64,000 nucleotides of DNA from Thermoplasmata archaeon. GTDB taxonomy: Archaea; Thermoplasmatota; JASEFT01; JBBABA01. Position 1 is the stretch's first letter. Each line of letters starts with the position of its first letter. The stretch lies in the NCBI GenBank assembly GCA_041657955.1, contig JBBABA010000001.1, positions 40,578-104,577 on the forward strand, written 5' to 3'. The notes under the pieces were generated by a model. It ran no database searches and was not told the origin of the DNA. It saw only the letters and a list, made by a program, of their open reading frames with translations. The position numbers and the translations under genes are program-made. This document shows, in pieces, positions 16,057-33,220 of the stretch.

Positions 16057-16185
16057 CCCGGCTTAGCTCAGACTGGTGGAGCGGGGGACTGTAGTTGGTT
16101 CTCGGAAGCCACAGATCGCATGGTCGAAGGCTTCCGATTCCCCGTTGACATCCTCAGGTCGTTGGTTCAAATCCGACAGCCGGGA
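16057..16185 (+). tRNA. tRNA-Tyr (anticodon GTA) with ~55-nt intron after position 37
   Basis: C1-G72 and A73 (archaeal Tyr identity); anticodon loop CTGTAG|intron; intron has internal helix CGGAAGCC/GGCTTCCG; exon 2 A-TCCTC-AGGTC-GTTGGTTCAAATCCGAC-AGCCGGG-A. Confidence 0.7.
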
Positions 16186-16670: not shown

Positions 16671-17870
16671 ATGGATGCTGTCTCTGCAGGTATGGTTGCA
16701 GCCATTGGCGGTGTGGCTGGAAAATTAGTTGAGAGAACGTGGACATCTGGTGAAAAATGGTTGAAATCTTTTTTTAAAGATCATCAGCCAGCAGCACAGC
16801 AAAAGGCACAGCAGAACGCATTAGATTTCTTAAACGAACTCGCCAATCGAGTACATGAAATTGAAAGCACGATAAAAGACAACTCTAGATATAAAAAATT
16901 TGTTGACGATGCATTATCCGATCCTGATTTCTCTGCATTATTAAAAGATGCTATGATTCATTCTAGCCGTACAGATTCAAACGAAAAACATAAATTACTT
17001 GCCCAACTTGTTTCGGAAAGATTGCACACATCACAAGGGTCGATGGTTGCAGCAGCGTGTAATTTAGCGTGTTCCACAATCCCTTATCTTACATCAGATC
17101 AACTTCGTTGTTTGGGTGTTATGTGTATATTGTATGAAGTTCGACCGCACCCTCGTCACCATATACATATAAAAACAAACCGTTTAGAGAAATCAACACA
17201 AACAACACAAGAAGAACAAGACATTGAATATTGGACGAACTGGCTCTCGAAAACATTGGGTCCAATGCTTCCTATCAAAAAAATGGGAAGAATTGATTAC
17301 GCTCACCTAGAATCGTTCTCATGCATCCGCCGTACAGTCTCTACTGGAAACAATACACAAACAATAGACGAATTTATAGAATCGACGATTCCGTCATTGC
17401 GTCTGGAGACGACACTGAAAGTATTCGGTGGTGTTGATAAAGCTACAAAAGAAAATCGCATCTTTAGAAAATATTTACACGAGAAACTTCCACAATATCA
17501 CAACTTATCTGAGATATGGAAAAGTGGTATACGCTTTGCGAGACTCTCAACAACCGGTATGATGATTGGTGCAAGCGTGATTGAAATGCTCGCTAACACC
17601 AAAGTCTATATTAAATGGGACGACGACGAACATGGTACGACTGAACAAAATGAACCGATCATTAACAACCAAAGATCTGAAATAGCGACCGACGTGTTGA
17701 TCAAAAAGCCTGTACTAGAACTAAAAGAATATCAAAACGCAGGTCGGGTAACCTCACAATACATGCACGATGGGGGGTTCGCCACAGGTAAACTATTAAA
17801 AACAACTCGAAAGAAACAAAGAAGCCACCAATATAAAAATAAAATCTCCACCCGAAACCAAGGGGTCTAG
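16671..17870 (+). CDS. orphan protein, function unknown (candidate accessory/defence-type protein)
   Basis: 399-aa ORF; no motif of a known enzyme family; AT-rich flanks; next to tRNA-Tyr; bracketed by an 18/19 inverted repeat. Confidence 0.55.
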   Translation: MDAVSAGMVAAIGGVAGKLVERTWTSGEKWLKSFFKDHQPAAQQKAQQNALDFLNELANRVHEIESTIKDNSRYKKFVDDALSDPDFSALLKDAMIHSSRTDSNEKHKLLAQLVSERLHTSQGSMVAAACNLACSTIPYLTSDQLRCLGVMCILYEVRPHPRHHIHIKTNRLEKSTQTTQEEQDIEYWTNWLSKTLGPMLPIKKMGRIDYAHLESFSCIRRTVSTGNNTQTIDEFIESTIPSLRLETTLKVFGGVDKATKENRIFRKYLHEKLPQYHNLSEIWKSGIRFARLSTTGMMIGASVIEMLANTKVYIKWDDDEHGTTEQNEPIINNQRSEIATDVLIKKPVLELKEYQNAGRVTSQYMHDGGFATGKLLKTTRKKQRSHQYKNKISTRNQGV

Positions 17871-17896
17871 GGGTAACACCCCCAACCCAGACGCAA

Positions 17897-18550
17897 TTAC
17901 TTCTTTACCCACATCCCACCAGTCTCTTTAACTACCTTCTTCTCTTTAAGAACTTCCAGCACTGGTTCGAGGATATTCTCGTTCACATCTATCTGGAACT
18001 GCCTAAAAAGGGCGTTTCTTATCTTTTTGGTAGATTTAGGGGCATCCAGCGTCTTTGGAATGAGAGATTGGAGATCTTCGTTGATATTCCATGGAAATAT
18101 AAACCAAGCCCAGTCCTTCTCGGGAACGATCTCGCCATAGAAGTCAGGGATTATCTTTGAATGTGTGATGTGCAGCAATGTGGCAGATTTCGCGCTCTTT
18201 GGCTTGAGACCTTTCACATGGTTGATCGCGAGCATTAAGCTCTGACCAGTATCTGTGATATCGTCCACGACAAGCACGTTCTTGCCTTTGATGTTCGCGG
18301 TCAGCGGTTGGGCGATCTTTGCTGTGCCGTCCGGCGTGGCAGTCACGCCCCAATGCTCGGTTTTGACGCTGTACAAATTCTTTATAACTAGGTGATCGCA
18401 AACAAGTCTTGCAGGTGCCCAGCCGCCTCTCGTAATTCCGATTACCGCATCTAAATTGAGTTTCGCGATCTTGATTTTTTTTACCAAATTGCTCGTCCAC
18501 TCATGGACTTCATCCCAAGAAACAAGCGTACATTTGAAGGATTCGATCAT
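17897..18550 (-). CDS. phosphoribosyltransferase (type I PRT, purine PRT-like)
   Basis: PRPP-binding motif VLVVDDITDTGQS. Confidence 0.75.
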   Translation of the reverse strand: MIESFKCTLVSWDEVHEWTSNLVKKIKIAKLNLDAVIGITRGGWAPARLVCDHLVIKNLYSVKTEHWGVTATPDGTAKIAQPLTANIKGKNVLVVDDITDTGQSLMLAINHVKGLKPKSAKSATLLHITHSKIIPDFYGEIVPEKDWAWFIFPWNINEDLQSLIPKTLDAPKSTKKIRNALFRQFQIDVNENILEPVLEVLKEKKVVKETGGMWVKK

Positions 18551-18930
18551 TTTTCTACACTCCTATTTTATTTTATCCCTTGTTCTGTTCTTTTATCCTT
18601 TGTTGTATTGATGCAGATAACTCGCCACCCAATAAATTTTTTGTTTTACGCAAAACGACACAAAATCAACGCGATCTGCTACCTATAATAATAAATCATA
18701 ACACAATTCCGCATCTGTTTGCCTCAGGGAATTTCTGTGCAAATTCAAACGCCAGTAATAAAATTACAACAGAACAGTTTTTATAAAATTCACATATTTT
18801 AACCAATGGAATTTAACTCCCGAAACTATAAAAAGTCAATATATATTCTGTTTATCAATAAAACGATACTGTACTCGATAAACAACATTATGCGACACCT
18901 GAAAAAAAACCAGGAGCGAAGAACACCAAT

Positions 18931-20232
18931 ATGGCAAAACAAAATTATGAAGATATGCAACGCAAGCGCGCGAACATGCAAAATCAAGCCCGAAACCGCC
19001 TGACGCATCCAGTAAACGACATATGGGAAACAAAAAGCCAAAAACTGTCTGGAAAAGCCATCGTATTGGGAGTAACTGGAAGCATCGCCGCTGTCGAAAC
19101 AGTAAAGCTGGCGCACGAGCTCGCAAGACACGGCGCAGACGTATGGTGCGTGATGAGCCGCCCGACTGCAAACATCATACACCCGGACGCGCTGGAATTC
19201 GCGACAGGGCACCCCGTGATTTTGGAAATCACAGGTCAGACCGAGCACATATCTTTGTGCGGCGACACAAAAAGAAAGGCAGATATACTTCTTATCGCCC
19301 CCTGTACCGCAAACACGCTGTCAAAAATCGCGTGCGGGATTGACGACACGCCTGTAACGACATTCGCGACAACCGCGATAGGATCCGACATACCGATTCT
19401 CATCGTGCCTGCCATGCACGCATCCATGTATCGCCATCCGATTGTAAAAGAGAACATGGAAAAACTGCGAAAGTACGGGGTAACAATAATAGAACCAAAA
19501 ATCGAGGAAAACAAGGCAAAGATGATGGATGTTGATGAGATTGTTGCAAACGTCTTTAGACGCATCGGAAAAAATGACATGGCTGGAAAAAAAACACTGA
19601 TAATCTCGGGGTCGACCGAAGAGGAAATCGACGACGTCAGGGTGATAACGAACCGGAGCACGGGAAAGACGGGGATTGAAATCGCAAAGGTTGTCTTCGA
19701 ACGCGGCGGCAATGTCACGCTTCTATGCGGGGCAAGCTCAGAAAAACCGCCGAGGTATATTCAGACAGAGAGGTTTTCCTCAGTAAAAAATTTAATGGAT
19801 ACACTAAAAAAGACGGATTTGCATAAATATGATATAATAATCATTCCCGCCGCAATATCCGATTATACTGCAAAGAAGCAAAAAGGAAAAATATCCTCTA
19901 CGAAAAAGAAAATTTCATTGGAGCTAACACAAACGCCAAAGGTTGTGGACTTCATAAGAAAAACATCGACGGCATACCTCGTTGGGTTTAAGGCAGAGCA
20001 CGGGATACCCGAGAAGGAACTGATCGACCGCGCATACGGGCGGTTAAAAGATATGGGCATGGACTTGATAGTAGCCAACGATATTTCGCTTACGACACCA
20101 GACGAAAACGTGGTTTTCATAATAGACAAAACCAAAAAAACCAAAAAAGTTGAGGGCAAAAAACAAAAAATCGCGGAAGAGATAATCGACACCATAGTCG
20201 AAAATGTAAAAAGTATCGGTGGTGGGAGCTGA
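18931..20232 (+). CDS. coaBC: bifunctional phosphopantothenoylcysteine decarboxylase / phosphopantothenate-cysteine ligase
   Basis: flavoprotein N-domain (IVLGVTGSIAA) and CoaB C-domain; start may be a downstream Met. Confidence 0.85.
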   Translation: MAKQNYEDMQRKRANMQNQARNRLTHPVNDIWETKSQKLSGKAIVLGVTGSIAAVETVKLAHELARHGADVWCVMSRPTANIIHPDALEFATGHPVILEITGQTEHISLCGDTKRKADILLIAPCTANTLSKIACGIDDTPVTTFATTAIGSDIPILIVPAMHASMYRHPIVKENMEKLRKYGVTIIEPKIEENKAKMMDVDEIVANVFRRIGKNDMAGKKTLIISGSTEEEIDDVRVITNRSTGKTGIEIAKVVFERGGNVTLLCGASSEKPPRYIQTERFSSVKNLMDTLKKTDLHKYDIIIIPAAISDYTAKKQKGKISSTKKKISLELTQTPKVVDFIRKTSTAYLVGFKAEHGIPEKELIDRAYGRLKDMGMDLIVANDISLTTPDENVVFIIDKTKKTKKVEGKKQKIAEEIIDTIVENVKSIGGGS

Positions 20233-20233
20233 A

Positions 20234-21172
20234 ATGACGACTATGCGACGCAAGGCGTTTGCACCCGGCCACATCAGCGGTTTTTTCCAGATATGCAGAA
20301 ATTCCAGGAATTTAGAAAAATACGGCTCCCGTGGAGCAGGCATCTGCATTAATAAGGGGGTAACTTCTGCCGTGGAAATTAAAGAGAGCGACGCTCAAGC
20401 AATCCGTGTATTTATAAATGGAAAGGAAAGTGCCGCCGAGGTCACCAAACAGGCAATAAAAAATCTCATCTCTGCAGGATCAGCATATAATAAAAAAACG
20501 AAGCAGAAGGGCACAAAAACCCAACCGCCCGACTCGAAATACAGCATCACGATCAACACCGCTCTCGAACTGCCGGTCAGCCAAGGGTTCGGCTTGAGTG
20601 CAGCCGGTGCTTTAAGCGCCGCACTCGCGACAGCATATGCACTCGAACTGAAATATCCAAAGACCGAAGCAGTATCTGCCGCGCACAAAGCAGAGATAGC
20701 ATGCGGAACTGGTTTGGGTGACGTGGTTGCCGAAGCCACCGGGGGTGTAGTGTTCAGGCGGGAACCAGGCATACCGCCGCACGGTGTTGTAGATAGGATA
20801 GACAGCGACAGTGATGTTGTCCTTTGTGTGGTTGGCGAGGAGATATTGACAAAAGACATAATCCTCAACGCAAAGCACATAGAACGCATCAACGACAGCG
20901 GCGAGAGGTGTATGATTGAGTTCCTTGCAGATCCAACAATCGCAAACTTCTTTGAGGTTGCGTATAAATTTACCTTGGAAATCAAATTGATGTCTTCGCC
21001 AGTCATAAACGCGATAAACGAGGCGCGCAAATACGGCGCGGCAAGCGCGTGCATGCTCGGAAACTCTGTTTTTGCGATGGGGGACGTCGATAAAATGACA
21101 AACACCCTCAAAGAATACGGCGAAGTCTATCTGTGCGAGATAGACAAGGACGGAATGAGGGTTTTGACATAA
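20234..21172 (+). CDS. pantoate kinase (archaeal CoA pathway, GHMP-kinase family)
   Basis: AFAPGHISGFF N-terminal signature; ATG 2 nt after the coaBC stop. Confidence 0.7.
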   Translation: MTTMRRKAFAPGHISGFFQICRNSRNLEKYGSRGAGICINKGVTSAVEIKESDAQAIRVFINGKESAAEVTKQAIKNLISAGSAYNKKTKQKGTKTQPPDSKYSITINTALELPVSQGFGLSAAGALSAALATAYALELKYPKTEAVSAAHKAEIACGTGLGDVVAEATGGVVFRREPGIPPHGVVDRIDSDSDVVLCVVGEEILTKDIILNAKHIERINDSGERCMIEFLADPTIANFFEVAYKFTLEIKLMSSPVINAINEARKYGAASACMLGNSVFAMGDVDKMTNTLKEYGEVYLCEIDKDGMRVLT

Positions 21173-21333
21173 GAAGTCACTATCAAATGAGGGTTTTGGC
21201 CTAAGAAATCATTGTCAGACCAGAGCCCAAACATTTGGCGAAGCACGCTTCAAATTACGCATAGAAACAGATAGAACCGCTTTTCCTGGCAATATAAGGG
21301 TGAAACAAAATCTTCTACCTCTCAGTTATACAT

Positions 21334-21500
21334 TTTTATCTCTGTATATATTTTTGTCTCTACCCGTCTGTTTTTATCTCAGTATGTGTTTTTATCTCTA
21401 TCTGTGTGTTTTTATTTCTATATGTGTTTTTTTTTATCTCTATCTGTGTGTTTTTATTTCTATATGTGTTTTTTTTTATCTCTGTCTATGTTTTTATCTA
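21334..21500. repeat. intergenic tandem repeat, ~8 copies of a ~21-bp unit (TTTTTATCTCTATCTGTGTG-like), including an exact 42-bp duplication
   Basis: direct reading: 21394-21435 is identical to 21436-21477; degenerate copies on both sides. Confidence 0.85.
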
Positions 21501-21572
21501 TTACGACCGTCGAGACTGGTGGTCGGTTGATCTTACTGGTGAAATGTTGAAATATCCTTAACATGGCAATCT

Positions 21573-22328
21573 TTGTCTATCGGAGAATACCTTTATAAAC
21601 GGCCATTTCCTTATGTTTTTTCGATGTTCAGAGAAACAATCGAAGGACTCGACCAAATCTTTGAAACTGATATTAAGACAAGAAAGACACTCCTGGTGCT
21701 GGGTGGCGGCGGGACGCTTAAAACAAGTTTTGTATACAATCTTCTATCGCTCCATCTCGCGAAGACAGGAGAGGTCGCATTATATATCACGCTGGAAGAA
21801 AGCGAGGAAAGCATACTGGAGAATATCAGATCTATAAACGCGCCTATTAGCAACAACATTCATATTGTGGATTACAACATTCTTAGATCGCAGTTCAAGG
21901 ATAAGGAAAAGGACCTGGAATTCGCGTATGTTTTGGAAACATTAATGAACTCGTTTAAAAAAGAGTACCCCGACAAATTCAGGTACTTGGCGTTAGACTC
22001 GCTCGGTGCGTTATATTCGTTGATAAAAATTTCAGACGCCAGGTCAGACATATACCACTTCTTTAATACATTAAAGGATTTGAGCTTAACCGGATTCATA
22101 ATCGCAGAAGAAACAGTTGCCGAACAGGGCAAGTTCGGTTATGAGGATTTCCTAACCGATGGAGTAATCACGCTGGGCTTGGTGGAAATAGAGGGACAGG
22201 TAAAACGATACATGCAGGTGAAAAAGATGCGCACCGTAAAGCACCAGATGGACAAATTTGAGATGGCAATCGGAGACAACGGGCTCACGATTGTCGGGCC
22301 ACTTTTCTCTGAAGCGGGATCTTCGTAG
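21573..22328 (+). CDS. KaiC/RadA-like RecA-superfamily ATPase domain protein with atypical P-loop
   Basis: single KaiC-like domain; Walker A region reads LGGGGTLKTS (no Gly before the Lys). Confidence 0.65.
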   Translation: MSIGEYLYKRPFPYVFSMFRETIEGLDQIFETDIKTRKTLLVLGGGGTLKTSFVYNLLSLHLAKTGEVALYITLEESEESILENIRSINAPISNNIHIVDYNILRSQFKDKEKDLEFAYVLETLMNSFKKEYPDKFRYLALDSLGALYSLIKISDARSDIYHFFNTLKDLSLTGFIIAEETVAEQGKFGYEDFLTDGVITLGLVEIEGQVKRYMQVKKMRTVKHQMDKFEMAIGDNGLTIVGPLFSEAGSS

Positions 22329-22582
22329 ATTAATAGCAATTAATTTTTTCAGAAATCAAACAACAATAACCGGCCATATGTTTTGAAAGTCTCAAAGCGC
22401 CCAATGTGAAAAAGGCATTAAACAGATAATAATAAATAAACAAAATAAATTATAGATAAAATACTATTATTAAAAAGTAAGAAAAACTAAAAATACGGCA
22501 AATAAACAATTTATTGCAGTAATCACAAAATCATTGAAACGCAATGTAATAAAAAATAAGATATTAAAAAACAGAAAATTAT

Positions 22583-22654
22583 GCGGCTGTAGTCTAGTGG
22601 TTAGGACTGGAGCTTCCCAAGCTTCAAACTCGGGTTCAAATCCCGGCAGCCGCA
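22583..22654 (+). tRNA. tRNA-Gly (anticodon CCC)
   Basis: acceptor GCGGCTG/CAGCCGC; anticodon loop TTCCCAA; T-loop GGTTCAAATCC. Confidence 0.85.
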
Positions 22655-22960
22655 CATCAACCAACAGAACCAATTAACAGTGATAGGATTTGAACCGAAG
22701 GTGTTGGAAAATTTTTAACTAATTATATTGAAATTTTTTAACTGAGTGGTATAAAGCACCTCTACATCAAATCCCGACAACCGCACATTGGCTGATAGAA
22801 CTAATTTTAACAGTGGCGGGATTTGAAAATGCGACGAACAAATATCATAACATCGCATGGCTCTGAAAAATTTTAATACACATTGTAGAAATTTTTCACT
22901 CCGAAGGAGAAACCCCGGCAGCCGCACATAAAACTCGGGGCAGCGCATACCCCGCGCATA
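22655..22960. repeat. degenerate copies of the tRNA-Gly 3' half (T-arm + acceptor), direct and inverted; att-site-like remnants
   Basis: TCAAATCCCGGCAGCCGCACAT (tRNA end) recurs as CATCAAATCCCGACAACCGCACATTGGCT (~22768) and CCCCGGCAGCCGCACAT (~22913); inverted GGATTTGAA arms at ~22686 and ~22816. Confidence 0.6.
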
Positions 22961-22976
22961 AAATCAGCCGGATGTA

Positions 22977-23543
22977 TCAGAGCGAATCGCCGCGCAACGA
23001 TACCCTTCTTGTAATTTCGCGAAGCAAACGCGAAACCTCTTTTTTTACATAACACGATTCGAGTATCCCAAATATCTTGTCGGCATTGCCCTTGTCGGTT
23101 TTGATTGTGCCGACATACGAGTTGTCCCCCAATTTCGCCCAAATGAGATATGTATCGTCAACAACAATGATCGGGACAGATAAGCGATAAATTGAGGACA
23201 ACCTATAGTTCGAATGCTCCTTCCAGAGTTTCTCCTCCTCCACCAAATTTTGCTCAAATATTGTTAACCGACCCTCGAATCCTATTGTTTTATCTTCAAA
23301 AAACTCGTCTCGTGTGTATGTATACGAATATAATAACAAACACGAACCTCCTTTTCCAACAACACGGCGGATACTATCCTTAGATATCTCCGCAAACTGT
23401 TCTCTATGTTTTTTGTCGGGAGACCGCGTGTCGCAGAGGAGTGATAACGAATTTTGAAATGCCCCTATCCTTTTTTGTGCTTTTTGTACTTCTGCACCAA
23501 TATATTTGTAAACTTCCTCTTCACAATCGATAAACTCAACCAT
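22977..23543 (-). CDS. hypothetical protein
   Basis: 188-aa ORF between the tRNA-derived repeats and the SRP RNA; no motif recognised. Confidence 0.5.
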   Translation of the reverse strand: MVEFIDCEEEVYKYIGAEVQKAQKRIGAFQNSLSLLCDTRSPDKKHREQFAEISKDSIRRVVGKGGSCLLLYSYTYTRDEFFEDKTIGFEGRLTIFEQNLVEEEKLWKEHSNYRLSSIYRLSVPIIVVDDTYLIWAKLGDNSYVGTIKTDKGNADKIFGILESCYVKKEVSRLLREITRRVSLRGDSL

Positions 23544-23794
23544 GTTTACACCAGTTTATCATATGCGCGGTTGTATATTAAAAGTTTCTATACTGGGTAT
23601 AAAACCTTCAACTTATGGAATATTTGGTCCGAATCATCCTTTGATGGGCGAGAATGCTCCGATAAGGCACAGCACCTAAGTCGAAGACATCCAGAGATAT
23701 TCCAAAAAGATTAAAAAGACCGAGAATATAACGAGTATAGGCGCATCGCAGGGCGTACAAATCCTGCAGAGATCGAAAAACCAAGAACCTGGCG

Positions 23795-24118
23795 AAAGAC
23801 GTTGAGATATACCGGGGTGTTAGGCGTACCCTGTGACCTATAAACCGTCTACAGTAGGGGCGAAGTTTGGGGGCAGTGATTCTGCTTGATATTGGACCAA
23901 ATGCTGCCGTTGAGACCACGTCCCTCGGGGGCTTGGGTGAATTTGGTTGCAGCCGGAGGGTTGCAGCCGTTTACTTCATCAGGGGAACCGGGTCAGGTCC
24001 GGAAGGAAGCAGCCTTATCCTGAACTATTGTCGCTCGAGGGGGTGCGGGGTTGAGAAGGTATTTGGAGCACCCAACTATTGAGCAGAGCACCCACCTCAC
24101 ACGCTCTCAGCGTCCGCT
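23795..24118 (+). ncRNA. signal recognition particle RNA (7S/SRP RNA)
   Basis: conserved helix-8 motif GGTCAGGTCCGGAAGGAAGCAGCC at ~23990-24014; GC-rich structured region; candidate terminal helix 23797-23806 / 24105-24114; exact ends uncertain. Confidence 0.65.
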
Positions 24119-24251
24119 AAAATAAATTAATAACCAAGTTAAACTGATATGGAGAGCATTAGCTGTATAATCGAGAGCATTATTTGCCTATTCACACACA
24201 GTTCAACACGCAGCTACTCATAGAAACAGATCGGATGAAAAAAAAAGAGGA

Positions 24252-25373
24252 ATGATTATGAACGACATAAGAATGAACAAACTGGCAAAAAACCTGATCA
24301 ACTACTCGGTTAGATTGAAAAAAGGCGAAAAAATATTGATAGAAACTTTTGACATACCGCCCGAATTCGTGAACGAATTGATAAAAGAAACGGTTGCGGT
24401 CGGCGGCACACCTATAGTCGAGTTGAAAAACAATTTGGTGTTAAGAGAACTTTACAAGAACGCTACCGAGAAAGGCATGAAGATTATCGGCGACTATGAA
24501 TTATATCGAATGAAGAAGGTAGACGCATATATAGGCGCGAGAGGGAGCTTCAACATCTCCGAGATGTCGGATGTTCCAATGGAAAAAATGAAGTTGTACC
24601 AAACACACTGGCTTAAACCCGTGCACCTCCAGCAGCGTGTTCCGCACACAAAATGGGTGGTCCTCAGATGGCCGACGTCTTCAATGGCGCAGCAGGCAGG
24701 CATGAGCACGGAAGCGTTTGAGAATTTCTATTTCGACGTCTGCACCATGAATTACAGCAAGATGTCAAAGGCCATGGACTCGTTAAAATCCTTAATGGAA
24801 GAAACAGACAAAGTACAAATAAAGGGCCCGGGCACAGACCTCAGATTTTCGATAAAAGGCATACCTGTGATAAAATGCGACGGGAAGCTGAACATTCCGG
24901 ACGGCGAAATATTCACAGCACCGGTTAAGAACTCCGTAAACGGCGTTATGACATACAACACACCCACCATATACCAGGGCACGGCGTTTGAAAACATAAA
25001 ACTGAAGTTCAAGAACGGGAAAATAATTGAAGCGACAGCGTCGGACACGGCAAAGCTGAATAAAATACTCGACTCTGACAGCGGAGCCCGCTATATCGGC
25101 GAGTTCGCACTCGGGGTAAACCCGTACATAACCCGCGCAATGAAGGACATACTGTTCGACGAGAAGATAATGGGGTCTTTCCATCTGACGCCCGGCAACT
25201 CATACGACGAGGCAGATAACGGAAATAAATCAGAAATACACTGGGACATGGTCTGCATCCAGACAAAAGAGTTCGGCGGCGGAGAGATATATTTCGACGA
25301 CATGCTTGTAAGGAAAGACGGAATGTTTGTCGGAAAGAAATTGGAATGCTTGAACCCAAAGAATCTGAAATGA
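24252..25373 (+). CDS. M29-family aminopeptidase (aminopeptidase T / AmpS-like)
   Basis: 373-aa ORF; family-typical C-terminal segment HLTPGNSYDE...EIHWDMV. Confidence 0.8.
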   Translation: MIMNDIRMNKLAKNLINYSVRLKKGEKILIETFDIPPEFVNELIKETVAVGGTPIVELKNNLVLRELYKNATEKGMKIIGDYELYRMKKVDAYIGARGSFNISEMSDVPMEKMKLYQTHWLKPVHLQQRVPHTKWVVLRWPTSSMAQQAGMSTEAFENFYFDVCTMNYSKMSKAMDSLKSLMEETDKVQIKGPGTDLRFSIKGIPVIKCDGKLNIPDGEIFTAPVKNSVNGVMTYNTPTIYQGTAFENIKLKFKNGKIIEATASDTAKLNKILDSDSGARYIGEFALGVNPYITRAMKDILFDEKIMGSFHLTPGNSYDEADNGNKSEIHWDMVCIQTKEFGGGEIYFDDMLVRKDGMFVGKKLECLNPKNLK

Positions 25374-25536
25374 TTTCTTTCCTATGTTTTACATGTTCGT
25401 GCATTGAATCGTCGTCGGCTCATTTCTAATAGATGCTAGACAGTATAGTTTAGAAAATGCACCCGATCTATTTACGATGTTCAAAAGAAAAAACAAGAAC
25501 CCCATTTAGGGGCCAAATTGGGCGTACTTGGAATAT

Positions 25537-26148
25537 CTACTCGCTCTTCTTCGGCTTGAACGTCATTATCGGTTTTCCCAGCGGAAGGATCTCAACTCCC
25601 GTGTGTTTGTTCAGCAGTGCTCCTGCAGCTCCGTAGAACGCGGAGAAAGAGGTACCGAGTAATGTAGCCCCGGTGATTCTAGAGTCGAATGGGTAGTATG
25701 AATTTACTATAAGCGCTATCAGCGCCAAGTCAATGAATATCAGGACGACAAACAGCATTTTGTTGGTGTTAAGCGACCCAAAGGTCAGGTATATGCTGAA
25801 TACCAGATAACCTATGAACGCGAATGTTAGGTGCTTAGGTTCTACGGCAACGCCTCCCCACAACATAATGACATATGTTAATGTGAGACCATACCAGAGC
25901 AGTGCGTATCCCGTGAACGCGGTTGCACCAAACAAGTTATTCCTGCGAAAATCTATACTGCCGGCGATAAGCTGTGCAGTTGCACCTAGGAACAAAGTCC
26001 ACGGTATTATGAGTGCCTTTTGAGCGCCTGTCCAACCAAAATCTGCGGAGGCAAGTACTAACGCGGCTACAGCGAGCCCAAATAACCCCAGGCTTGTCGG
26101 GTCCGCAATCGTGGGGCTATTTTGTGTTGTTGTCTCTGACATATCCAC
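25537..26148 (-). CDS. GPR1/FUN34/YaaH-family membrane protein (acetate/succinate channel-like)
   Basis: six hydrophobic helices; N-terminal DPTSLGLFGLAV motif. Confidence 0.7.
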   Translation of the reverse strand: MDMSETTTQNSPTIADPTSLGLFGLAVAALVLASADFGWTGAQKALIIPWTLFLGATAQLIAGSIDFRRNNLFGATAFTGYALLWYGLTLTYVIMLWGGVAVEPKHLTFAFIGYLVFSIYLTFGSLNTNKMLFVVLIFIDLALIALIVNSYYPFDSRITGATLLGTSFSAFYGAAGALLNKHTGVEILPLGKPIMTFKPKKSE

Positions 26149-26276
26149 CTCACCTTGAAATCGGGAAAGGCACGCTATTATTTAATGTTTTCTTGATGCT
26201 TTATATGATTTAGCTCGATATCAGGGTTCAATTTTCTTATACCAGCATATAACAAAATTTCAATTTTAGAAATCAC

Positions 26277-29200
26277 ATGGCAGGCAAATCATTGTGCCAA
26301 AAGCATTATATCTCAGTAGCAGCGTATTTTATAAGTGGCATGCACGAATCAAAAATAAAGACGCAATTAAGCGCAATGTTTGTTGCATCGATACTAGCTA
26401 TATCTGTGCTTGTTGTTAGCGTTAGCTATATCTCCATATCTATGTCTATAAAAAATAGCGATGAGAAAAGAATTGATTTTTATGATGTAAACGGAAACAA
26501 GATAGAAGACGTGTTGGAGAATGTTGTTGCAAACAAACAGGAGAACGAAACCGTAAAAGCGATAGTTTCATTCAACAACAAGGACAACAACCATCACTTG
26601 AACGATTTTGAAGCTATAGGCGCAAAAATTTTGTTTGATTATCAGATAATAAACGGAATTGCCATAGAGCTTCCTTGCAATAACCTGACAAAGATACCAA
26701 ATATTGGGGATGTAGAATACGTCGAGCTCGACCGTGAGTATCGCATCCAATATAATGAAAATGATGCCGAGCTAGACCGCGAATACCGCACCCTGCTTAA
26801 TGACAAAGTCCAGTTGATAGACGCTGACCCGCCCACACTTCAAAAGTATGGTTATGGAGATATCACGGGATGGGGCGTAACAATCGCAGTCATAGACACC
26901 GGAATAGATCCAACCCACGAATCACTAGATGATATGGACGATAACCCTGCTACAACTGACCCAAAAGTTATCGGCTGGTATGATAATGTAAACCATAGGA
27001 CATCTGCTTATGACGACCAAGGGCATGGAACACATTGCGCTGGGATATGTGCGGGCACAGGAGGGCCATCACATACATACCGGGGTGTAGCTCCGGGGGC
27101 GAAATTGGTCGGCGTTAAAGTCATGAACAGCCAGGGTGGTGGCACAGAAAGCACGATGATTGACGGCCTAAACTGGATTATAAACAATAAAGGCAAGTAT
27201 AACATAAGAGTAATCTCGATGAGCTTGGGGCTGCCTTATTATATGGCGGCTATGGCTGGGATGCCATTAAACGGAAAGTCGACCATCGACAAGGCCGCAA
27301 CTGCCGCAGTAAACGCGGGGTTAATATTTGCCGTGGCTGCGGGTAATTCTGGCCATATGGATGTGCAGGGAAACCGCCTAATAGTTACAGAACCGCTTAA
27401 AGAAACCATAGGCCCGCCCGCTACATGCGAAGATGTGATAACTGTTGGAAGCAATTTTCTTTCCGGGAGTGACACGGGCGTAGATTTTTATTCCAGTAGG
27501 GGGCCGACATCGGACGGCAGAACAAAGCCCGACGTCGCGGCACCTGGTACAGACGTAATGGCTCCAAACGTCAACACCAAGACCGGTTATGTAAGGCACT
27601 CTGGCACCTCGATGGCCTGCCCAATGGTTGCTGGTTCTGCAGCGCTTGTTATAAATTATTATCTGAATGCTACGAAAGGGTATGAAAATTACTATCCGCA
27701 AACGACGGGGGGGCTCCCAATGCCTACAAACGCACAGGTAAAAAAACTTCTAGGAGAACTCACGGCAATCGACCTTTTTCCATACAGCGAACCAGGTAAG
27801 GATAACGACACAGGCTGGGGGTTGATAGATGTAAGCGAGGCAATGAACGCAATAAACTTTTTACCTATCGCAAAGGCAACAGCTAACACCACAACCGCGG
27901 TTGCCGGTGAAACAATAACTTTTACGGCTAAGGACACAACAGACATAAACGGTCCAAGGTCACGAGCTGTTTATATGTGGGATTTCGGAGACCAGTATGC
28001 GGACCCGGCAACAAACCCGAATAAGGATTGGTACATGAACACGAGCCACAAATTTACGCGCGGCGGCACGTACACAATAACACTGACAATCACAAACATC
28101 AAGGAAGCCACCTACAGCGAACCAGACGATTTTAAAAAGGCCAACACATGGGACGTCGGGGTTTCAGGCATCAACACCAAATCGATTCAAATAACGATTC
28201 TAAACAGCCCTCCGGTCGCTGTTATAAACAAAGTGAATTTCGCAAGCGACATTGTTCCGACAAATCAGCAGACTTCTTTCGACGCATCGCAATCCTATGA
28301 TAATGACACGAGCACTCCAAACAATCCTCTGCAGTATAAGTGGGCATTTGGGGACGGTTCATCTACTGATTGGGCAAGTTCGCCTACTGCACAGCACACG
28401 TATGTGACCAAAGGCACATACAACGTCGTCTTAACAGTGAAGGATGATGCCGACGCCACGGCCACAGACACCATGACACTAAAGGCGACGAGTCCTCCAG
28501 CCGCAGTACCCGGGCCTAGTCAAACCGTTAAGACAAACGAAGTTGTTTATTTTAACGGTACAGGAACAGACAGCGACGGCTCGATCGCCAAATATTTGTG
28601 GGATTTCGACGGCGACGGCACGTATGATTGGGAGTCTACAACCACAGGAAAGACAACGCATACTTACCAGCACAAAGGAGCGTATGACGCCGCCTTTAAG
28701 ACAATAGACGACATGGGCGCAGAAACAATCACCAAGGTAAAAATAAACATCGAAAACACGCTGCCTGTGCCGATAGTTAAAATAACGAAATCGAACGTTA
28801 CTTACCCAGGCGACACCGTACGTTTTGATGCATCCAGCTCTTACGACACAGACACCCACACACAGCAAAACCCAATATCATTCAAATGGATATTTGGCGA
28901 CGGTGCGACCTCTACCGACGCAGCCACCAACCACATCTATCAGGACAACGGCATATATAATTTGACACTCCAAATAACCGATGACGATTTTGGAATTACA
29001 ATTTATCGACAAAATTTAACAATACTGAACAAAAAACCCATAGCGACAATAGACGAGAATACGCGCCTGACAAACATAACAACAGCAAACAGCGGAGAAG
29101 AGATTTTATTTACATCGCCTAGCGCGTACGACCCTGACACCCATACGCCAAGCGCCCCGATAACTTACCAATGGGACTTCGGCGATGGGAATATCGGATA

Positions 29201-31058
29201 TGGCAAAAATGCAAGACATATTTTTGCGCACAAGGGCAACTATCTCATCAACCTGACAATACTTGACGATGACAACGAAAGCGCAGAAGTCAACCTCACA
29301 ATAAATATCACAATAAATAATAGAAAACCAGCTGTCGACACAGCAAACATCACACAGATGGCGAACATCACCGAAATAACAAGCGGTCAATCAATATCTT
29401 TTACGGCTCCAAACGCAACAGATATAGATACCCACGCATCAGGCAATCCGATAATTTACCAATGGAACTTCGGCGACGGGTGCATAGAGATTGGTAAAGA
29501 AATCGCACACACTTTTGCGCACGGCGGCAATTACAATGTTGTTCTAACAATACTTGACGATGACAACGAAAGCGCAGAAGGCAATTTCACAACGAATGTT
29601 ATTGTAAATAATAGAAAACCAATAGTTAATGTGACTGATACCACGCAGATAGTGAGCGCAAGCGAAACAAAAAGCGGACAATCGATAGCATTTACAGCGC
29701 CGAACGCAACAGACCCCGACACTAACACATCAGATAATCCAGTAACTTACCTATGGGATTTCGGCGATGGAAGTACTAGTGCGGAGAAAACCCCAAATCA
29801 CACCTACAATAAAAGCGGCTTCTTTAATGTGACATTGAAGATAATCGACGATAGTAACGAAACCGTAGTTAAATACATACCAATCCAGATATTAAACACG
29901 CCCCCGCTAGTCAGTAATGTGAGCGCGCCGAAGGCGGGGGACGCAGGCAAAGGACTTTCTTTTGCCGCAAATTGTGCGGATGCCGACGGGGCGATCGTGG
30001 ATTACATATGGGATTTCGGCGACGGCACAACCGAAAAAGGTTCCGAAGTTACCCACGTGTATAAGCGAGGAGGCGCGTACACGGTTACGTTAATCGTTAC
30101 AGATAACGAAGGGGGCGTGACGAACACAACCACAACAGTCAACGTCAGCGGGACGATTGGGGATGTTATCGGTATACCTCTAGATGGAGTCACACTCATT
30201 CTGTTTATTGTGCCGATTATTGTCCTGGTGTGTGTAGCAGTAGTCTATTCTAGAAGACGGGGAAAACGAAAAGAGAAGGAAGCACCGGAAGAAGAGAAAC
30301 CAAAAGAAACACCGGAATCAACAAAAGGAACTGCAGCAACACAAATGTTGGGTGGTGTAGATGGGCACAATGAAAGTTTACCACTTCCAGGGTACCCCGC
30401 GGGAGAGCGGCAGCAAACAGGATATCCCGCATACGGACAGACTGATGCCCAAGCGGCGGATGCTGGGTGGCGGCCGCAGCATATACCGCCGGCACAACCA
30501 GGATATGGAAGTGAAGAAGCAATAGGAAGAGAAACGCAACAGGCACCGGTAGGGCCAGAAGGAAGAAAATCTGTTTATGATGCATACGGCCAGCAGCTAG
30601 ACGCGAGAAAATCCGCGAAACCTGCGGCAACGGCTACACAGACAAGATGCCCCAAATGCCGTTACTCCATATTGGTCACATCGCCCGAGAGGCCAATCAA
30701 GGTGCACTGCCCGAAGTGTGGCACAGTGGGCATATTAAAACAAAAACCAACACAAAAAACACCCGTACCAGAGCAACGCTACGAAACGCCTCCGAGAAAA
30801 CCCGCGCTGGGGACGGTGCAGAAACAGGCAGAAAGACAGCATGGCTATGAACAGCCGCCCGCAAAAAAATCCATACTGGATGGGATGAAGAAAGGGCCGG
30901 AAGGAAAACCTCTTGTAAAAAAACAATCACAAACTAGCACCAAAAACTGTCCAAGATGCCAAACACCAATAGTTATAACCCAGAGCACAAGACCGCTTAC
31001 TATAACCTGCCCGAGTTGCGGGCTTTCATGCGTTCTGCGCAAACAAAAAACCTTATAA
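26277..31058 (+). CDS. secreted subtilisin-like serine protease (S8) with ~8 PKD-like domains, C-terminal TM helix and cytoplasmic tail with two zinc ribbons
   Basis: catalytic triad motifs VIDTGID, HGTHCAG, GTSMACPMVAG; repeated WDFGDG PKD cores; TM LILFIVPIIVLVCVAVV; tail with two CPxC-x17-CPxC ribbons; start may be Met22 or Met34. Confidence 0.85.
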   Translation: MAGKSLCQKHYISVAAYFISGMHESKIKTQLSAMFVASILAISVLVVSVSYISISMSIKNSDEKRIDFYDVNGNKIEDVLENVVANKQENETVKAIVSFNNKDNNHHLNDFEAIGAKILFDYQIINGIAIELPCNNLTKIPNIGDVEYVELDREYRIQYNENDAELDREYRTLLNDKVQLIDADPPTLQKYGYGDITGWGVTIAVIDTGIDPTHESLDDMDDNPATTDPKVIGWYDNVNHRTSAYDDQGHGTHCAGICAGTGGPSHTYRGVAPGAKLVGVKVMNSQGGGTESTMIDGLNWIINNKGKYNIRVISMSLGLPYYMAAMAGMPLNGKSTIDKAATAAVNAGLIFAVAAGNSGHMDVQGNRLIVTEPLKETIGPPATCEDVITVGSNFLSGSDTGVDFYSSRGPTSDGRTKPDVAAPGTDVMAPNVNTKTGYVRHSGTSMACPMVAGSAALVINYYLNATKGYENYYPQTTGGLPMPTNAQVKKLLGELTAIDLFPYSEPGKDNDTGWGLIDVSEAMNAINFLPIAKATANTTTAVAGETITFTAKDTTDINGPRSRAVYMWDFGDQYADPATNPNKDWYMNTSHKFTRGGTYTITLTITNIKEATYSEPDDFKKANTWDVGVSGINTKSIQITILNSPPVAVINKVNFASDIVPTNQQTSFDASQSYDNDTSTPNNPLQYKWAFGDGSSTDWASSPTAQHTYVTKGTYNVVLTVKDDADATATDTMTLKATSPPAAVPGPSQTVKTNEVVYFNGTGTDSDGSIAKYLWDFDGDGTYDWESTTTGKTTHTYQHKGAYDAAFKTIDDMGAETITKVKINIENTLPVPIVKITKSNVTYPGDTVRFDASSSYDTDTHTQQNPISFKWIFGDGATSTDAATNHIYQDNGIYNLTLQITDDDFGITIYRQNLTILNKKPIATIDENTRLTNITTANSGEEILFTSPSAYDPDTHTPSAPITYQWDFGDGNIGYGKNARHIFAHKGNYLINLTILDDDNESAEVNLTINITINNRKPAVDTANITQMANITEITSGQSISFTAPNATDIDTHASGNPIIYQWNFGDGCIEIGKEIAHTFAHGGNYNVVLTILDDDNESAEGNFTTNVIVNNRKPIVNVTDTTQIVSASETKSGQSIAFTAPNATDPDTNTSDNPVTYLWDFGDGSTSAEKTPNHTYNKSGFFNVTLKIIDDSNETVVKYIPIQILNTPPLVSNVSAPKAGDAGKGLSFAANCADADGAIVDYIWDFGDGTTEKGSEVTHVYKRGGAYTVTLIVTDNEGGVTNTTTTVNVSGTIGDVIGIPLDGVTLILFIVPIIVLVCVAVVYSRRRGKRKEKEAPEEEKPKETPESTKGTAATQMLGGVDGHNESLPLPGYPAGERQQTGYPAYGQTDAQAADAGWRPQHIPPAQPGYGSEEAIGRETQQAPVGPEGRKSVYDAYGQQLDARKSAKPAATATQTRCPKCRYSILVTSPERPIKVHCPKCGTVGILKQKPTQKTPVPEQRYETPPRKPALGTVQKQAERQHGYEQPPAKKSILDGMKKGPEGKPLVKKQSQTSTKNCPRCQTPIVITQSTRPLTITCPSCGLSCVLRKQKTL

Positions 31059-31110
31059 ACACATAATATATTAAAGCGGACTCTATATAAATAAAAATAG
31101 GAGAATTGTT

Positions 31111-31884
31111 ATGGATGAAATATCACTAGCAGTTGGAGTAATAGGGCTAGTCGTGGGGCTAGTTGCGTTGTTGATAGTCTATCTCCAAGTTATACAAAAA
31201 GCCCTGCCTTCCTTGAGAAATAACCTGACCACAACTAACGAAAGACTCGACAGGTTCGAAGCGGTCCTTACGCAAAAGACTGACTTTACGATAGATGAAT
31301 TGTTTGAATCGATAAAAACATCCACTATAATCAGGGAAAGAATCGCCGAGGGGCTGGAAGAGAACACATATACGATCGAGGGCGGAGACCAGATTTTCCA
31401 GAAAGCGCTCTCCATGTTGAGGGACGCAAAGAAGAGCATATTGTCAATCTGGTGTTTGCCGAGCGAGGAGCCGCCGAAATGGTATAGCGAAACCATAGAA
31501 GAAAAAATCAAAGAAGGCGTGCAGATCACCCGCCTGATGAACCTCAGAAATCCTGCGATACGGGCCAATGCTATAGAGTTGATGAAGAAATTCTACAATG
31601 TAAAGAATTTCGCCATATATCACACAGATCAAACAAGTTCGGAAACAATGATAGTGGACGACAGGCAGGCGATTATTACATTCCCGACCGCGGAACAGAT
31701 CTCGAACATCAATTCTGCAGTATACACCGACAACCAAAAGTTCGTAAACGCAATCAGGGCATGGTACCAGCAGTACATATATACAGAAAAGAACAGGATC
31801 AAGAGCGTAAACGACATAATGAAGTATTCTGAGCAGGCGAGCAAAACAGCAGAAGCAACAACAGAGACAAAACCGGCAGAGTAA
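31111..31884 (+). CDS. membrane-anchored hypothetical protein
   Basis: N-terminal TM helix; 257 aa; immediately downstream of the S8 protease. Confidence 0.45.
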   Translation: MDEISLAVGVIGLVVGLVALLIVYLQVIQKALPSLRNNLTTTNERLDRFEAVLTQKTDFTIDELFESIKTSTIIRERIAEGLEENTYTIEGGDQIFQKALSMLRDAKKSILSIWCLPSEEPPKWYSETIEEKIKEGVQITRLMNLRNPAIRANAIELMKKFYNVKNFAIYHTDQTSSETMIVDDRQAIITFPTAEQISNINSAVYTDNQKFVNAIRAWYQQYIYTEKNRIKSVNDIMKYSEQASKTAEATTETKPAE

Positions 31885-31978
31885 ATGTGCTATGTTATTT
31901 TGTGTACTGGTGTCTGTATCGGGTAGGCTATAGCATCAATAATTTTTGTATTAATCTTGTTAGTAGTTGTTAGTAAAT

Positions 31979-33220
31979 CTAGCCAATTAGCAGTGCGGCA
32001 TATACCTTCGCATCGTTTAGCATGTTTTCAATAACACAATATTCATTCGGCGTGTGCGGCACTTCGTCGAGCTTCGACCAGACAACAGCATCAAATCCGG
32101 CTTTTCTAAACATTGCGGCGCATGTGCCCCCTCCTATGCCGCCGACATAGGGCTCGTTTTTGTAAACTGTTTTAATCGCGGTCTTCAGGTTGGTCACAAT
32201 CCATGAGTTTTGGCTTGTGGGCGGCGCCGCAGGCTCGTGATTTGCGGCTCCTATTTTCATCTTTACATTGAACTGCTTTTCATATTTGGATGCGAGGTCT
32301 GTCACAGTCTTCAAGACGTCGTCGGTTTTGTATTCGGGAAGGATCCTCATGTCCATATAGAATACGTCGTCTCCTGGTATTGTGTTAACGTTCGGTACGT
32401 TAGCCTCTTTTTTCGTAGGCTCGAATGTAGATACTGGGGGGTCGAACAGCGTGTTTTTTGCATTATACTTCGAGTACAACAAGGTATCAAGTTCGTTTGC
32501 AAATTTTATTGCTGTCTTAAACGCATTTATGCCCTTCTCAGGCGTGCTGCCGTGCGTCTGCTTCCCCTCTGTAGTCACTTTCAGCCACATGATCGATTTT
32601 TCCGCAATCTCGATTAATGTGCCTTGTTCGTTCCCGCCGTCAGGCACTATAAAGAAATCCCGGTTATGCTCGAATATTCCCTTGTTCACGATATGCTTTA
32701 TTCCATATTTGCTGCCTGTCTCCTCATCAGCAACAAGCGCGAGGCCGACGTCATACTTCGGCGTTATTCCCATGTCCTTCAGGATTTTTAGGGCATACAT
32801 CGCGGCAACCATTTCCTGGTTGTTGTCCTCAGTGCCTCTGCCATATACCTTCCCGTCCTTTACCACAGGTTTAAACGGGTCGCTGTTCCATTTTTTCATA
32901 TCGCCTGGAGGAACTACATCAGTGTGGCAGGCTATCCAGATCGTCTTTTCGCTGCTCTTTCCCTTCATCTTTACAACAATATTTGGTCTTATCTTCGTCG
33001 GGGATTTATCGTCAGGAGCGTCGAAATGCTGGATGTCCGTGAAACCGAACGACTTCAGCATTTTCTCCAATAAAATGACTTTTTTAGTCTCCCCTTCTCC
33101 GCCTGATCGCGGGTCTATCGCAGGGATTTTTACAAGCTCGCAAAGCGAGGAAACTATCTCGTCCTTAGATTCCTCGATCTTCGCAAAAACATCCTCTAAA
33201 TTATGCTCTGTCTTCGTCAT
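31979..33220 (-). CDS. M20-family metallopeptidase (ArgE/DapE/ACY1-like)
   Basis: His/Asp/Glu metal-site motifs (ACHTDVV, ADEETG) and dimerisation domain. Confidence 0.8.
   Translation of the reverse strand: MTKTEHNLEDVFAKIEESKDEIVSSLCELVKIPAIDPRSGGEGETKKVILLEKMLKSFGFTDIQHFDAPDDKSPTKIRPNIVVKMKGKSSEKTIWIACHTDVVPPGDMKKWNSDPFKPVVKDGKVYGRGTEDNNQEMVAAMYALKILKDMGITPKYDVGLALVADEETGSKYGIKHIVNKGIFEHNRDFFIVPDGGNEQGTLIEIAEKSIMWLKVTTEGKQTHGSTPEKGINAFKTAIKFANELDTLLYSKYNAKNTLFDPPVSTFEPTKKEANVPNVNTIPGDDVFYMDMRILPEYKTDDVLKTVTDLASKYEKQFNVKMKIGAANHEPAAPPTSQNSWIVTNLKTAIKTVYKNEPYVGGIGGGTCAAMFRKAGFDAVVWSKLDEVPHTPNEYCVIENMLNDAKVYAALLIG

Follow-up and report, generated by a model that had tools for sequence, protein, structure and literature searches.

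A hydrophobic residue in place of the Walker A glycine in a clade of archaeal single-domain KaiC-like proteins

The glycine immediately before the Walker A lysine is among the most conserved positions in biology, and a protein with any other residue there is usually read as a dead enzyme. The question raised by the locus described here is whether that reading holds for a gene which has lost this glycine and otherwise resembles an ATPase gene. The gene lies in a stretch of 64,000 nucleotides (nt) of contig JBBABA010000001.1 from a Thermoplasmata archaeon (assembly GCA_041657955.1), called the window below, in which an open reading frame (ORF) is present at 21573..22328 on the plus strand with a translation that includes LVLGGGGTLKTSF. 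The original prediction, made from the letters of the DNA, had described its product as a single-domain KaiC-like ATPase with a non-canonical P-loop and had suggested that it may be a degenerate or regulatory enzyme. We find that the gene appears to belong to an uncharacterised variant of KaiC-like ATPases, a clade with a hydrophobic residue at this most conserved glycine and with the rest of the nucleotide site intact.

That the protein is a single-domain, KaiC/RecA-fold member of the KaiC superfamily is indicated both by sequence and by predicted structure, in agreement with the original prediction. Pfam family PF06745 (KaiC) matches residues 22-241 of the 251-amino-acid (aa) ORF with E=1.1e-34 and 120.3 bits against a cut-off of 26.6, and is the only Pfam match; the ORF does not score as DUF835 (PF05763) or MEDS (PF14417). 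An AlphaFold2 (AF2) model built from a 37-sequence alignment has a predicted local distance difference test score (pLDDT) of 89.9, rising to 95-98 around the P-loop, and a predicted template-modelling score (pTM) of 0.89. When this model was compared with the PDB by Foldseek, the best matches were KaiC-CI, PH0186 and PH0284 (E ~1e-17, template-modelling (TM) scores of 0.75-0.82), and the best solved-structure relatives by sequence (phmmer) were KaiC proteins together with PH0186, PH0284 and SSO2452, archaeal proteins with a single domain.

Alignment to KaiC located the elements of the nucleotide site as listed here, all on the plus strand and with residues numbered from the ATG at 21624:

21624..22328, stop codon included: coding sequence of the single-domain KaiC-like protein, 234 aa (PF06745, identical database protein P0001, AF2, Foldseek)
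21702..21725: Walker A, G27-G-G-G-T-L32-K33-T34, aligned to KaiC GTxGTGKT, with Leu32 encoded by ctt (21717-21719)
21795..21800: catalytic glutamate pair E58-E59 (KaiC-CI E77/E78), aligned to KaiC TFEES/TFEET
21984..21998: Walker B strand R-Y-L-A-L-D125, aligned to the IDS/VDS Walker B of KaiC
22107..22109: E162, an acidic residue where the strand that follows Walker B ends, found in 103/106 clade domains
22146..22151: D175-F176, equivalents of the KaiC-CII phosphosite S431/T432, with 'dfltd' opposite the '(S/D)TITD' of KaiC domain 2
22224..22232: K201-M202-R203, equivalent to the KaiC-CI Lys/Arg-finger segment K224-L-R226 and aligned to KaiC KLRGTSH, with a putative finger role by homology

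In the phmmer alignments to KaiC structures, GGGGTLKT lies opposite GTPGTGKT or GTSGTGKT, which puts Leu32 in the column of the glycine before the lysine, as had been predicted. LEES likewise falls opposite FEES/FEET, LALDS opposite (V/I)DS and KKMRTVKH opposite K(L/F/M)RGxxH. The sequence thus departs from the canonical GxxxxGK[ST] of the KaiC superfamily, while D125, E58/E59 and K201/R203 align to KaiC. No canonical Walker A made of other residues emerged, either from the alignment or from a motif scan for [GA]xxxxGK[ST] over the whole protein, and the AF2 model predicts a strand at 22-27, a five-residue loop and a helix from K33, i.e., the canonical P-loop geometry around Leu32-Lys33 with no register shift. 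An alternative Walker A or a shift in register can be set aside, given that no canonical motif occurs elsewhere and that the modelled loop has the canonical length. Ser and Thr are absent from the positions aligned with the KaiC-CII phosphosite (D175/F176). As judged from these alignments, the constellation of residues for Mg-ATP binding and hydrolysis is intact except for the Gly-to-Leu change.

A single gene with such a change might simply have decayed, and the conservation of the change among relatives bears on this directly. In a set of 103 homologous sequences (E<=1e-5), of which ~95 have a readable P-loop, the pattern GxxGx[L/M/F/V]K[ST] is found in all but the three most distant (P0101-P0103), which have GTGK[ST]. 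A scan of one genome per GTDB species for the family motif DSLGALYSL found 327 genomes; the residue before the lysine is M in 73, L in 10 and F in 1 of the 80 loci retrieved from that scan and four earlier loci. A search of 1.84 billion 50%-identity representatives with a profile of the family (A2) returned 281 clusters at E<=1e-30, and the scores split cleanly: every domain at >=135 bits is hydrophobic at position 32, and those at <=107 bits, mostly from two- or three-domain KaiC homologues, have Gly there, with one Ala. We define the clade by a score of >=135 bits on the A2 profile, a hydrophobic residue before the lysine of Walker A, the motif DS[LI]xxLYSL after Walker B, and KMRxxxH. The window protein, itself a member of the profile, scores 327 bits and has the clade motifs, and by these measures the window gene is an ordinary member of its clade.

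Residue counts were taken over 106 representative clade domains (<=50% mutual identity) and 52 neighbouring canonical KaiC-like domains:

Position 32: clade M 48, L 48, F 5, Y 3, V 1, I 1, G 0; canonical G 51, A 1
K33: clade 106/106; canonical 52/52
S/T34: clade 106/106; canonical 52/52
E58: clade 100/106; canonical 36/52
D125: clade 106/106; canonical 52/52
E162: clade 103/106; canonical 31/52
D179: clade 106/106; canonical 51/52
K201: clade 104/104; canonical 51/52
R203: clade 96/103 (K in 5); canonical 52/52
H207: clade 98/103; canonical 33/52

On these counts the Gly-to-hydrophobic change is a clade-defining, strictly conserved trait and not decay, and we infer that selection has favoured a large hydrophobic side chain beyond tolerating it. 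At the catalytic positions the clade departs systematically in only one further place, the second glutamate (position 59), which is Glu in 35/106 and Gln in 66/106 clade domains and Glu in 49/52 canonical ones; the window protein keeps E59. Outside the catalytic positions, the T432-equivalent is F or Y in 99/106 clade domains, aromatic residues are specific to the clade at positions 38 and 147, and a glycine is lost at position 5. Members come from Thermoplasmatota (including Methanomassiliicoccales) and from methylotrophic Methanosarcinales, and their database names are generic only ('RAD55 family ATPase', 'KaiC/GvpD/RAD55 family RecA-like ATPase'). Our literature search found nothing specific on KaiC with a non-canonical Walker A or with Met at this position, though Makarova et al. 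2017 (mBio 8:e01959-17) may have catalogued the clade as one of the divergent or inactivated KaiC groups.

Degeneration peculiar to this lineage, a pseudogene or a sequencing error in the window could all put a leucine in the P-loop of one gene, and we attach next to no probability to any of them. The same class of substitution recurs in hundreds of homologues, the reading frame is intact and the AF2 model confident. An identical protein is encoded in an independent assembly (contig L001), and three orthologues with 69-83% identity carry GGGG[TA][LM]K[TS]; because the protein recurs in that assembly and the orthologues share the motif type, Leu32 is not a sequencing artefact. Among the three orthologues, which are of the window's own lineage, dN/dS is 0.06-0.14, and by this estimate the gene is under strong purifying selection. 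Homologue conservation, the independent assembly and dN/dS together exclude a one-off loss. The suggestion of a degenerate ATPase is accordingly misleading, given the hydrophobic residue in 106/106 domains, the retention of the other site residues and the low dN/dS, and its alternative, a regulatory ATPase, is plausible and is the one that we prefer by inference from the sequence. The protein in the genome of the closest GTDB species is only 48% identical, against 69-83% for the metagenomic orthologues, and the lineage of the window therefore seems to be without representation among the species genomes.

The same orthologues bear on where the gene begins. Two further features of the plus strand are relevant:

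21573..21623: stretch added to the 5' end of the ORF by counting from a TTG, most likely untranslated and with the putative promoter inside it; the orthologue and database starts are at the ATG
21592..21599: TTTATAAA, archaeal TATA-box-like element 32 nt 5' of the ATG, with a putative promoter role from its position and consensus

The database protein P0001 is identical to the window protein at 234 aa, and P0001 and the orthologues P0002-P0004 all start with MF[RK]. When the DNA upstream of the gene is aligned for three orthologues, a block AGAATAyyTTTATAAr is seen to be kept in the window and in loci L087 and L088, while the flanks diverge. TTTATAAA is presumably the archaeal TATA box of a leaderless or near-leaderless mRNA. 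Since the orthologues begin at the ATG and the TATA box falls inside the supposed extension, the coding start is almost certainly ATG 21624 (234 aa) and not TTG 21573. The coordinate of 21573 given in the original prediction was thus 51 nt too far upstream.

Several families with names of their own were considered for the protein and rejected. It is not a circadian KaiC, having a single domain of 234 aa as opposed to CI+CII of ~500 aa, and scoring 99.7 bits on NF006799 against a cut-off of 408 and 65.9 on TIGR02655 against 546. ArlH/FlaH was excluded by 21.3 bits on NCBIfam NF052589 (cut-off 215) and by the lack of an arl gene among the Pfam-annotated flanking ORFs. The curated archaeal KaiC_arch and thermo_KaiC families TIGR03877-TIGR03881 gave 23-76 bits against cut-offs of 232-307, the scores for TIGR03877, TIGR03880 and TIGR03881 being 70-76 bits against ~250-307. 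The inactivated 'iKaiC' group of DUF835 and MEDS proteins was dismissed on the sole match to PF06745 and on the retained Walker A lysine and Walker B aspartate. An origin in anti-phage defence or in a phage was likewise rejected, as PADLOC returned no match and PHROGs only a marginal DnaB-like one (E=0.0015).

What the altered site might do can be approached through the relatives whose structure or biochemistry is known. The window protein resembles KaiC-CI (PDB 4TL7, 4TLC) in fold (TM ~0.8), in its glutamate pair, Walker B aspartate and Lys/Arg-finger segment, and in that neither has Ser or Thr at the CII phosphosite positions; it differs from KaiC in being single-domain as opposed to CI+CII, in having Leu for the Walker A Gly, in an identity of only ~22-24%, and in its surroundings, where none of the ten flanking ORFs (16671-33220, Pfam) matches kaiA, kaiB or another Kai family. 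PH0186 (2ZTS), PH0284 (2DR3) and SSO2452 (2W0M), its best single-domain structural matches, are similar in size (~230-250 aa) and consist of a single RecA-like domain, but score <=105 bits on the clade profile versus >=135 for clade members, and their canonical-like group has Gly. A non-glycine residue before the lysine is known from the MCM helicases, whose Walker A, GDPxx[A/S]KS, belongs to an active ATPase, so that glycine is not absolutely required there; the MCM residue is, however, a small Ala or Ser, unlike the large Leu, Met or Phe of the clade, and MCM has the AAA+ and not the RecA/KaiC fold. We know of no precedent for Leu or Met at this position, and a preprint on the P-loop mechanism does not comment on the residue before the lysine. 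The best functional analogy for a switch, as opposed to a motor, is offered by FlaH/ArlH, likewise KaiC-like with a single domain and deviant in one motif of its nucleotide site. FlaH binds ATP tightly without detectable hydrolysis and needs nucleotide for partner binding (PMC5019145). The deviation of FlaH, unlike that of the clade, lies in Walker B (Glu to Ser/Thr), and its Walker A is canonical.

With these comparisons in mind, we consider it slightly the better bet that the protein is an oligomeric nucleotide-binding switch or adaptor whose turnover is altered or slow, as opposed to a dead enzyme. It would form a RecA-type ring with nucleotide sites at the subunit interfaces, because the conservation of the trans-acting K201/R203 would otherwise have no rationale. 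ATP-Mg would be bound through K33, T34, D125 and E58, with K201/R203 supplied by the neighbouring subunit, and the hydrophobic residue 32 would remodel the P-loop in such a way that nucleotide exchange or hydrolysis is slow or gated by a partner. In this role, as a switch or adaptor set by its nucleotide state, the protein would be comparable to KaiC-CI or FlaH/ArlH and unlike a motor or autokinase. Oligomerisation, nucleotide binding, slow turnover and a signalling role are all putative. A loss of nucleotide binding would be unexpected, as the Lys, Ser/Thr, Asp, Glu and trans Lys/Arg are near-invariant among domains of <=50% identity.

Several points weigh against this proposal. In P-loop NTPases the glycine before the lysine takes up a backbone conformation in which side chains are disfavoured, and its replacement, as in Ras G15A, strongly weakens nucleotide binding, so that binding could be lost despite the kept Lys and Thr. 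Gln at the second glutamate in 66/106 clade members hints at weakened catalysis in the family. A sequence comparison with the PDB found no entry that belongs to the clade, which thus has no solved structure. Finally, the window copy is an orphan, with none of the partner genes of its relatives within 64 kb: searches of the window in six frames with hidden Markov models (HMMs) of six neighbour clusters found no partner homologue, and neither did tblastn with the coiled-coil partner described below. Its cellular role can therefore not be read from its context in the window.

The first two of these points lead to an alternative that we consider unlikely though worth serious attention, namely that the protein is a pseudo-ATPase in which the bulky residue blocks the phosphate nest. 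No nucleotide would be bound, and the part of the protein would be purely that of an adaptor or a structural subunit, perhaps within hetero-oligomers that include other KaiC-like or DUF835 proteins, much like the inactive Rad51 paralogues. Such a role would fit a Gly-to-hydrophobic change at the most conserved Walker A position together with the loss of the second catalytic glutamate in 62% of the clade, as well as the recurrent proximity of clade genes to those for DUF835 (inactivated KaiC-like) proteins in two distant lineages and the pairing of two paralogues in one cluster in L022, L048, L072 and L078. It is harder to reconcile with the 93-100% conservation of the Lys, the Ser/Thr, the Walker B Asp, the first Glu and the Lys/Arg-finger pair, which is difficult to explain without a bound nucleotide or phosphate ligand, and with the fact that the inactive RecA/KaiC derivatives DUF835 and MEDS have lost the Walker residues altogether. 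The clade and these 'iKaiC' proteins are alike in belonging to the archaeal KaiC superfamily, in a compromised ATPase site and in signalling neighbourhoods, and DUF835 often adjoins clade members, but the window protein keeps its Lys, Thr, Asp, Glu and Arg finger and matches PF06745. Inactivated KaiC domains are an accepted category in archaea (PMC5847659), which speaks for a pseudo-ATPase.

The strictness of the selection at position 32, where a large hydrophobic residue (M/L/F/Y) is favoured and not any small one, suggests a positive role for the side chain, and the family-specific aromatics at positions 38 and 147 co-occur with it. Both observations would suit a remodelled P-loop in which the hydrophobic residue creates a new specificity pocket for a different ligand with phosphate; this might be a nucleotide other than ATP, a messenger made of a cyclic or linear oligonucleotide, or a partner that is phosphorylated. 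As the remainder of the site is a standard KaiC ATP-Mg site, we regard this as improbable.

The neighbourhoods of the clade genes in other genomes give some indication of the setting in which an ATP-dependent switch or adaptor, our preferred reading, might work. By a crude clustering of ORFs at 84 loci, a co-directional downstream gene in 61 of them encodes a ~400-aa protein with a long coiled coil and C-terminal Zn ribbons (Zn_ribbon_3/DZR), often followed by a gene for a ~1500-aa protein that combines an archaeal pilin N-terminus with CARDB and VWA domains, or for a tetratricopeptide repeat (TPR) protein. The closest relatives of the window locus (L002, L003, L005, L007) also lack the coiled-coil and Zn-ribbon partner. 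On the upstream side the genes differ between loci, among them gyrB/gyrA and genes for a triple-Zn-ribbon protein and for a fusion of a DnaA-type AAA+ domain with DUF835, and four loci (L022, L048, L072, L078) have a second, more divergent paralogue with the Met P-loop GSPGTMKTS. Some clade members are themselves fused to TPR, HhH+TPR or Zn-ribbon modules. In Methanococcoides (L085:3158-9063, L086:1-5606) the order is REC-PAS, PAS-DUF835, a 375-aa wHTH-like protein, the KaiC-like gene and a PAS-GAF-HisKA-HATPase histidine kinase. By analogy, these neighbourhoods are of the kind described for archaeal KaiC-like signalling hubs, DUF835 domains and type IV pilus loci, KaiC-family ATPases having been proposed as signalling hubs in archaea with links to type IV pilus loci (PMC5847659, PMC4858521).

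Two arrangements among the relatives can be described more closely. A cluster conserved in Thermoplasmata and Methanomassiliicoccales (L008:2303-12700, with similar ones in L011, L022, L048, L072, L078 and L082) runs from the DnaA-type AAA+-DUF835 gene, sometimes followed by the Met-P-loop paralogue, through the triple-Zn-ribbon gene on the opposite strand to the KaiC-like gene, the coiled-coil and Zn-ribbon gene and the gene for the ~1500-aa protein, which in L084 bears Pilin_N, CARDB and VWA domains. Methanococcoides methylutens has two clade paralogues ~2.6 kb apart.

A bolder version of the proposal would hold that the clade as a whole has a new kind of functional nucleotide site, for example an ultra-slow or partner-gated ATP switch or a site of altered ligand specificity. 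Together with the coiled-coil/Zn-ribbon, TPR and DUF835 partners, such a site would govern two-component signalling and structures of the surface or pilus-like kind. We offer this tentatively and consider it rather doubtful; if true, the clade would be a case in nature where the GxxxxGK[ST] rule does not hold and the side chain contributes positively to the mechanism.

Whichever explanation applies, the meaning of the locus shifts from one degenerate gene to a family-level, conserved exception to the P-loop rule, in which hundreds of divergent archaeal proteins have Leu or Met before the lysine and keep the other catalytic residues under strong selection. Either nucleotide binding survives the bulky residue, and the rules for calling pseudo-ATPases would be refined, or a pseudo-enzyme has some other reason to keep its catalytic constellation whole. 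The clade is also a candidate for a part in the KaiC-based signalling network that has been proposed for archaea; the partners that recur beside it are histidine kinases, DUF835 proteins, the coiled-coil/Zn-ribbon protein and giant pilin-like proteins. In annotation, the labels degenerate and circadian KaiC/Rad55 should be avoided for its genes.

The surroundings of the gene in the window comprise the following features, with the strand given where it was recorded:

18931-20232, upstream of the KaiC-like gene: CoaBC (Pfam)
20219-21172, upstream: GHMP-type kinase (Pfam)
21327-21499: pyrimidine-rich tandem array with consensus TTTTTATCTCTATCTGTGTG and periods of ~20/42 nt
22583-22655, downstream of the KaiC-like gene: tRNA-Gly(CCC)
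22977-23543, minus strand: 188-aa ORF between the tRNA-Gly repeat units and the signal recognition particle (SRP) RNA
23800-24112, plus strand: archaeal SRP RNA (Rfam RF01857, 170.8 bits)
26277-31058, plus strand: secreted-type 1593-aa protein with a Tk-SP-like propeptide, an S8 subtilase domain and eight PKD domains

A six-frame HMM search of the window found no second KaiC-like gene. The tandem array at 21327-21499 sits ~90 nt 5' of the TATA box of the KaiC-like gene. Contig L001, which encodes the identical protein, stops inside the array, and the L087 contig stops 66 nt 5' of the orthologous ATG, which suggests that the tandem repeats break assemblies. The array is not present upstream of the 79%-identical orthologue in L088.

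On the other side of the gene, TCAAATCCCGGCAGCCGCACA, which is the 3' end of tRNA-Gly(CCC), turns up again at two places downstream, ~22767 and ~22910 (region 22636-22932), in units of ~131-141 nt that share further segments (families D2, D4, D6 and D7). Judging by their sequence, the recurring tRNA ends look like stacked remnants of the att sites of elements integrated at the tRNA. Pfam, PADLOC and PHROGs give no match for the 188-aa ORF at 22977-23543; gene calling on contig L001, from the independent assembly, reports it as well. The ORFs listed across the SRP RNA stretch (23800-24112) are spurious.

Farther upstream, Rfam reports a 129-nt tRNA match at 16057-16185 on the plus strand and ARAGORN none; it is probably an intron-containing archaeal tRNA. 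Adjoining it, a 399-aa ORF at 16671-17870 on the plus strand, with no credible Pfam match, resembles the virus-associated phrog_19542 (E=7e-25, function unknown). This ORF lies in the stretch of lowest GC content in the window (0.388) and may be a remnant of a mobile element.

Beyond the SRP RNA, the genes follow in the order M29 peptidase, YaaH-family protein and the 1593-aa subtilase (Pfam). The subtilase clusters with large proteins encoded upstream of the KaiC-like gene at three loci of haloalkaliphilic Thermoplasmata, L046, L054 and L055.

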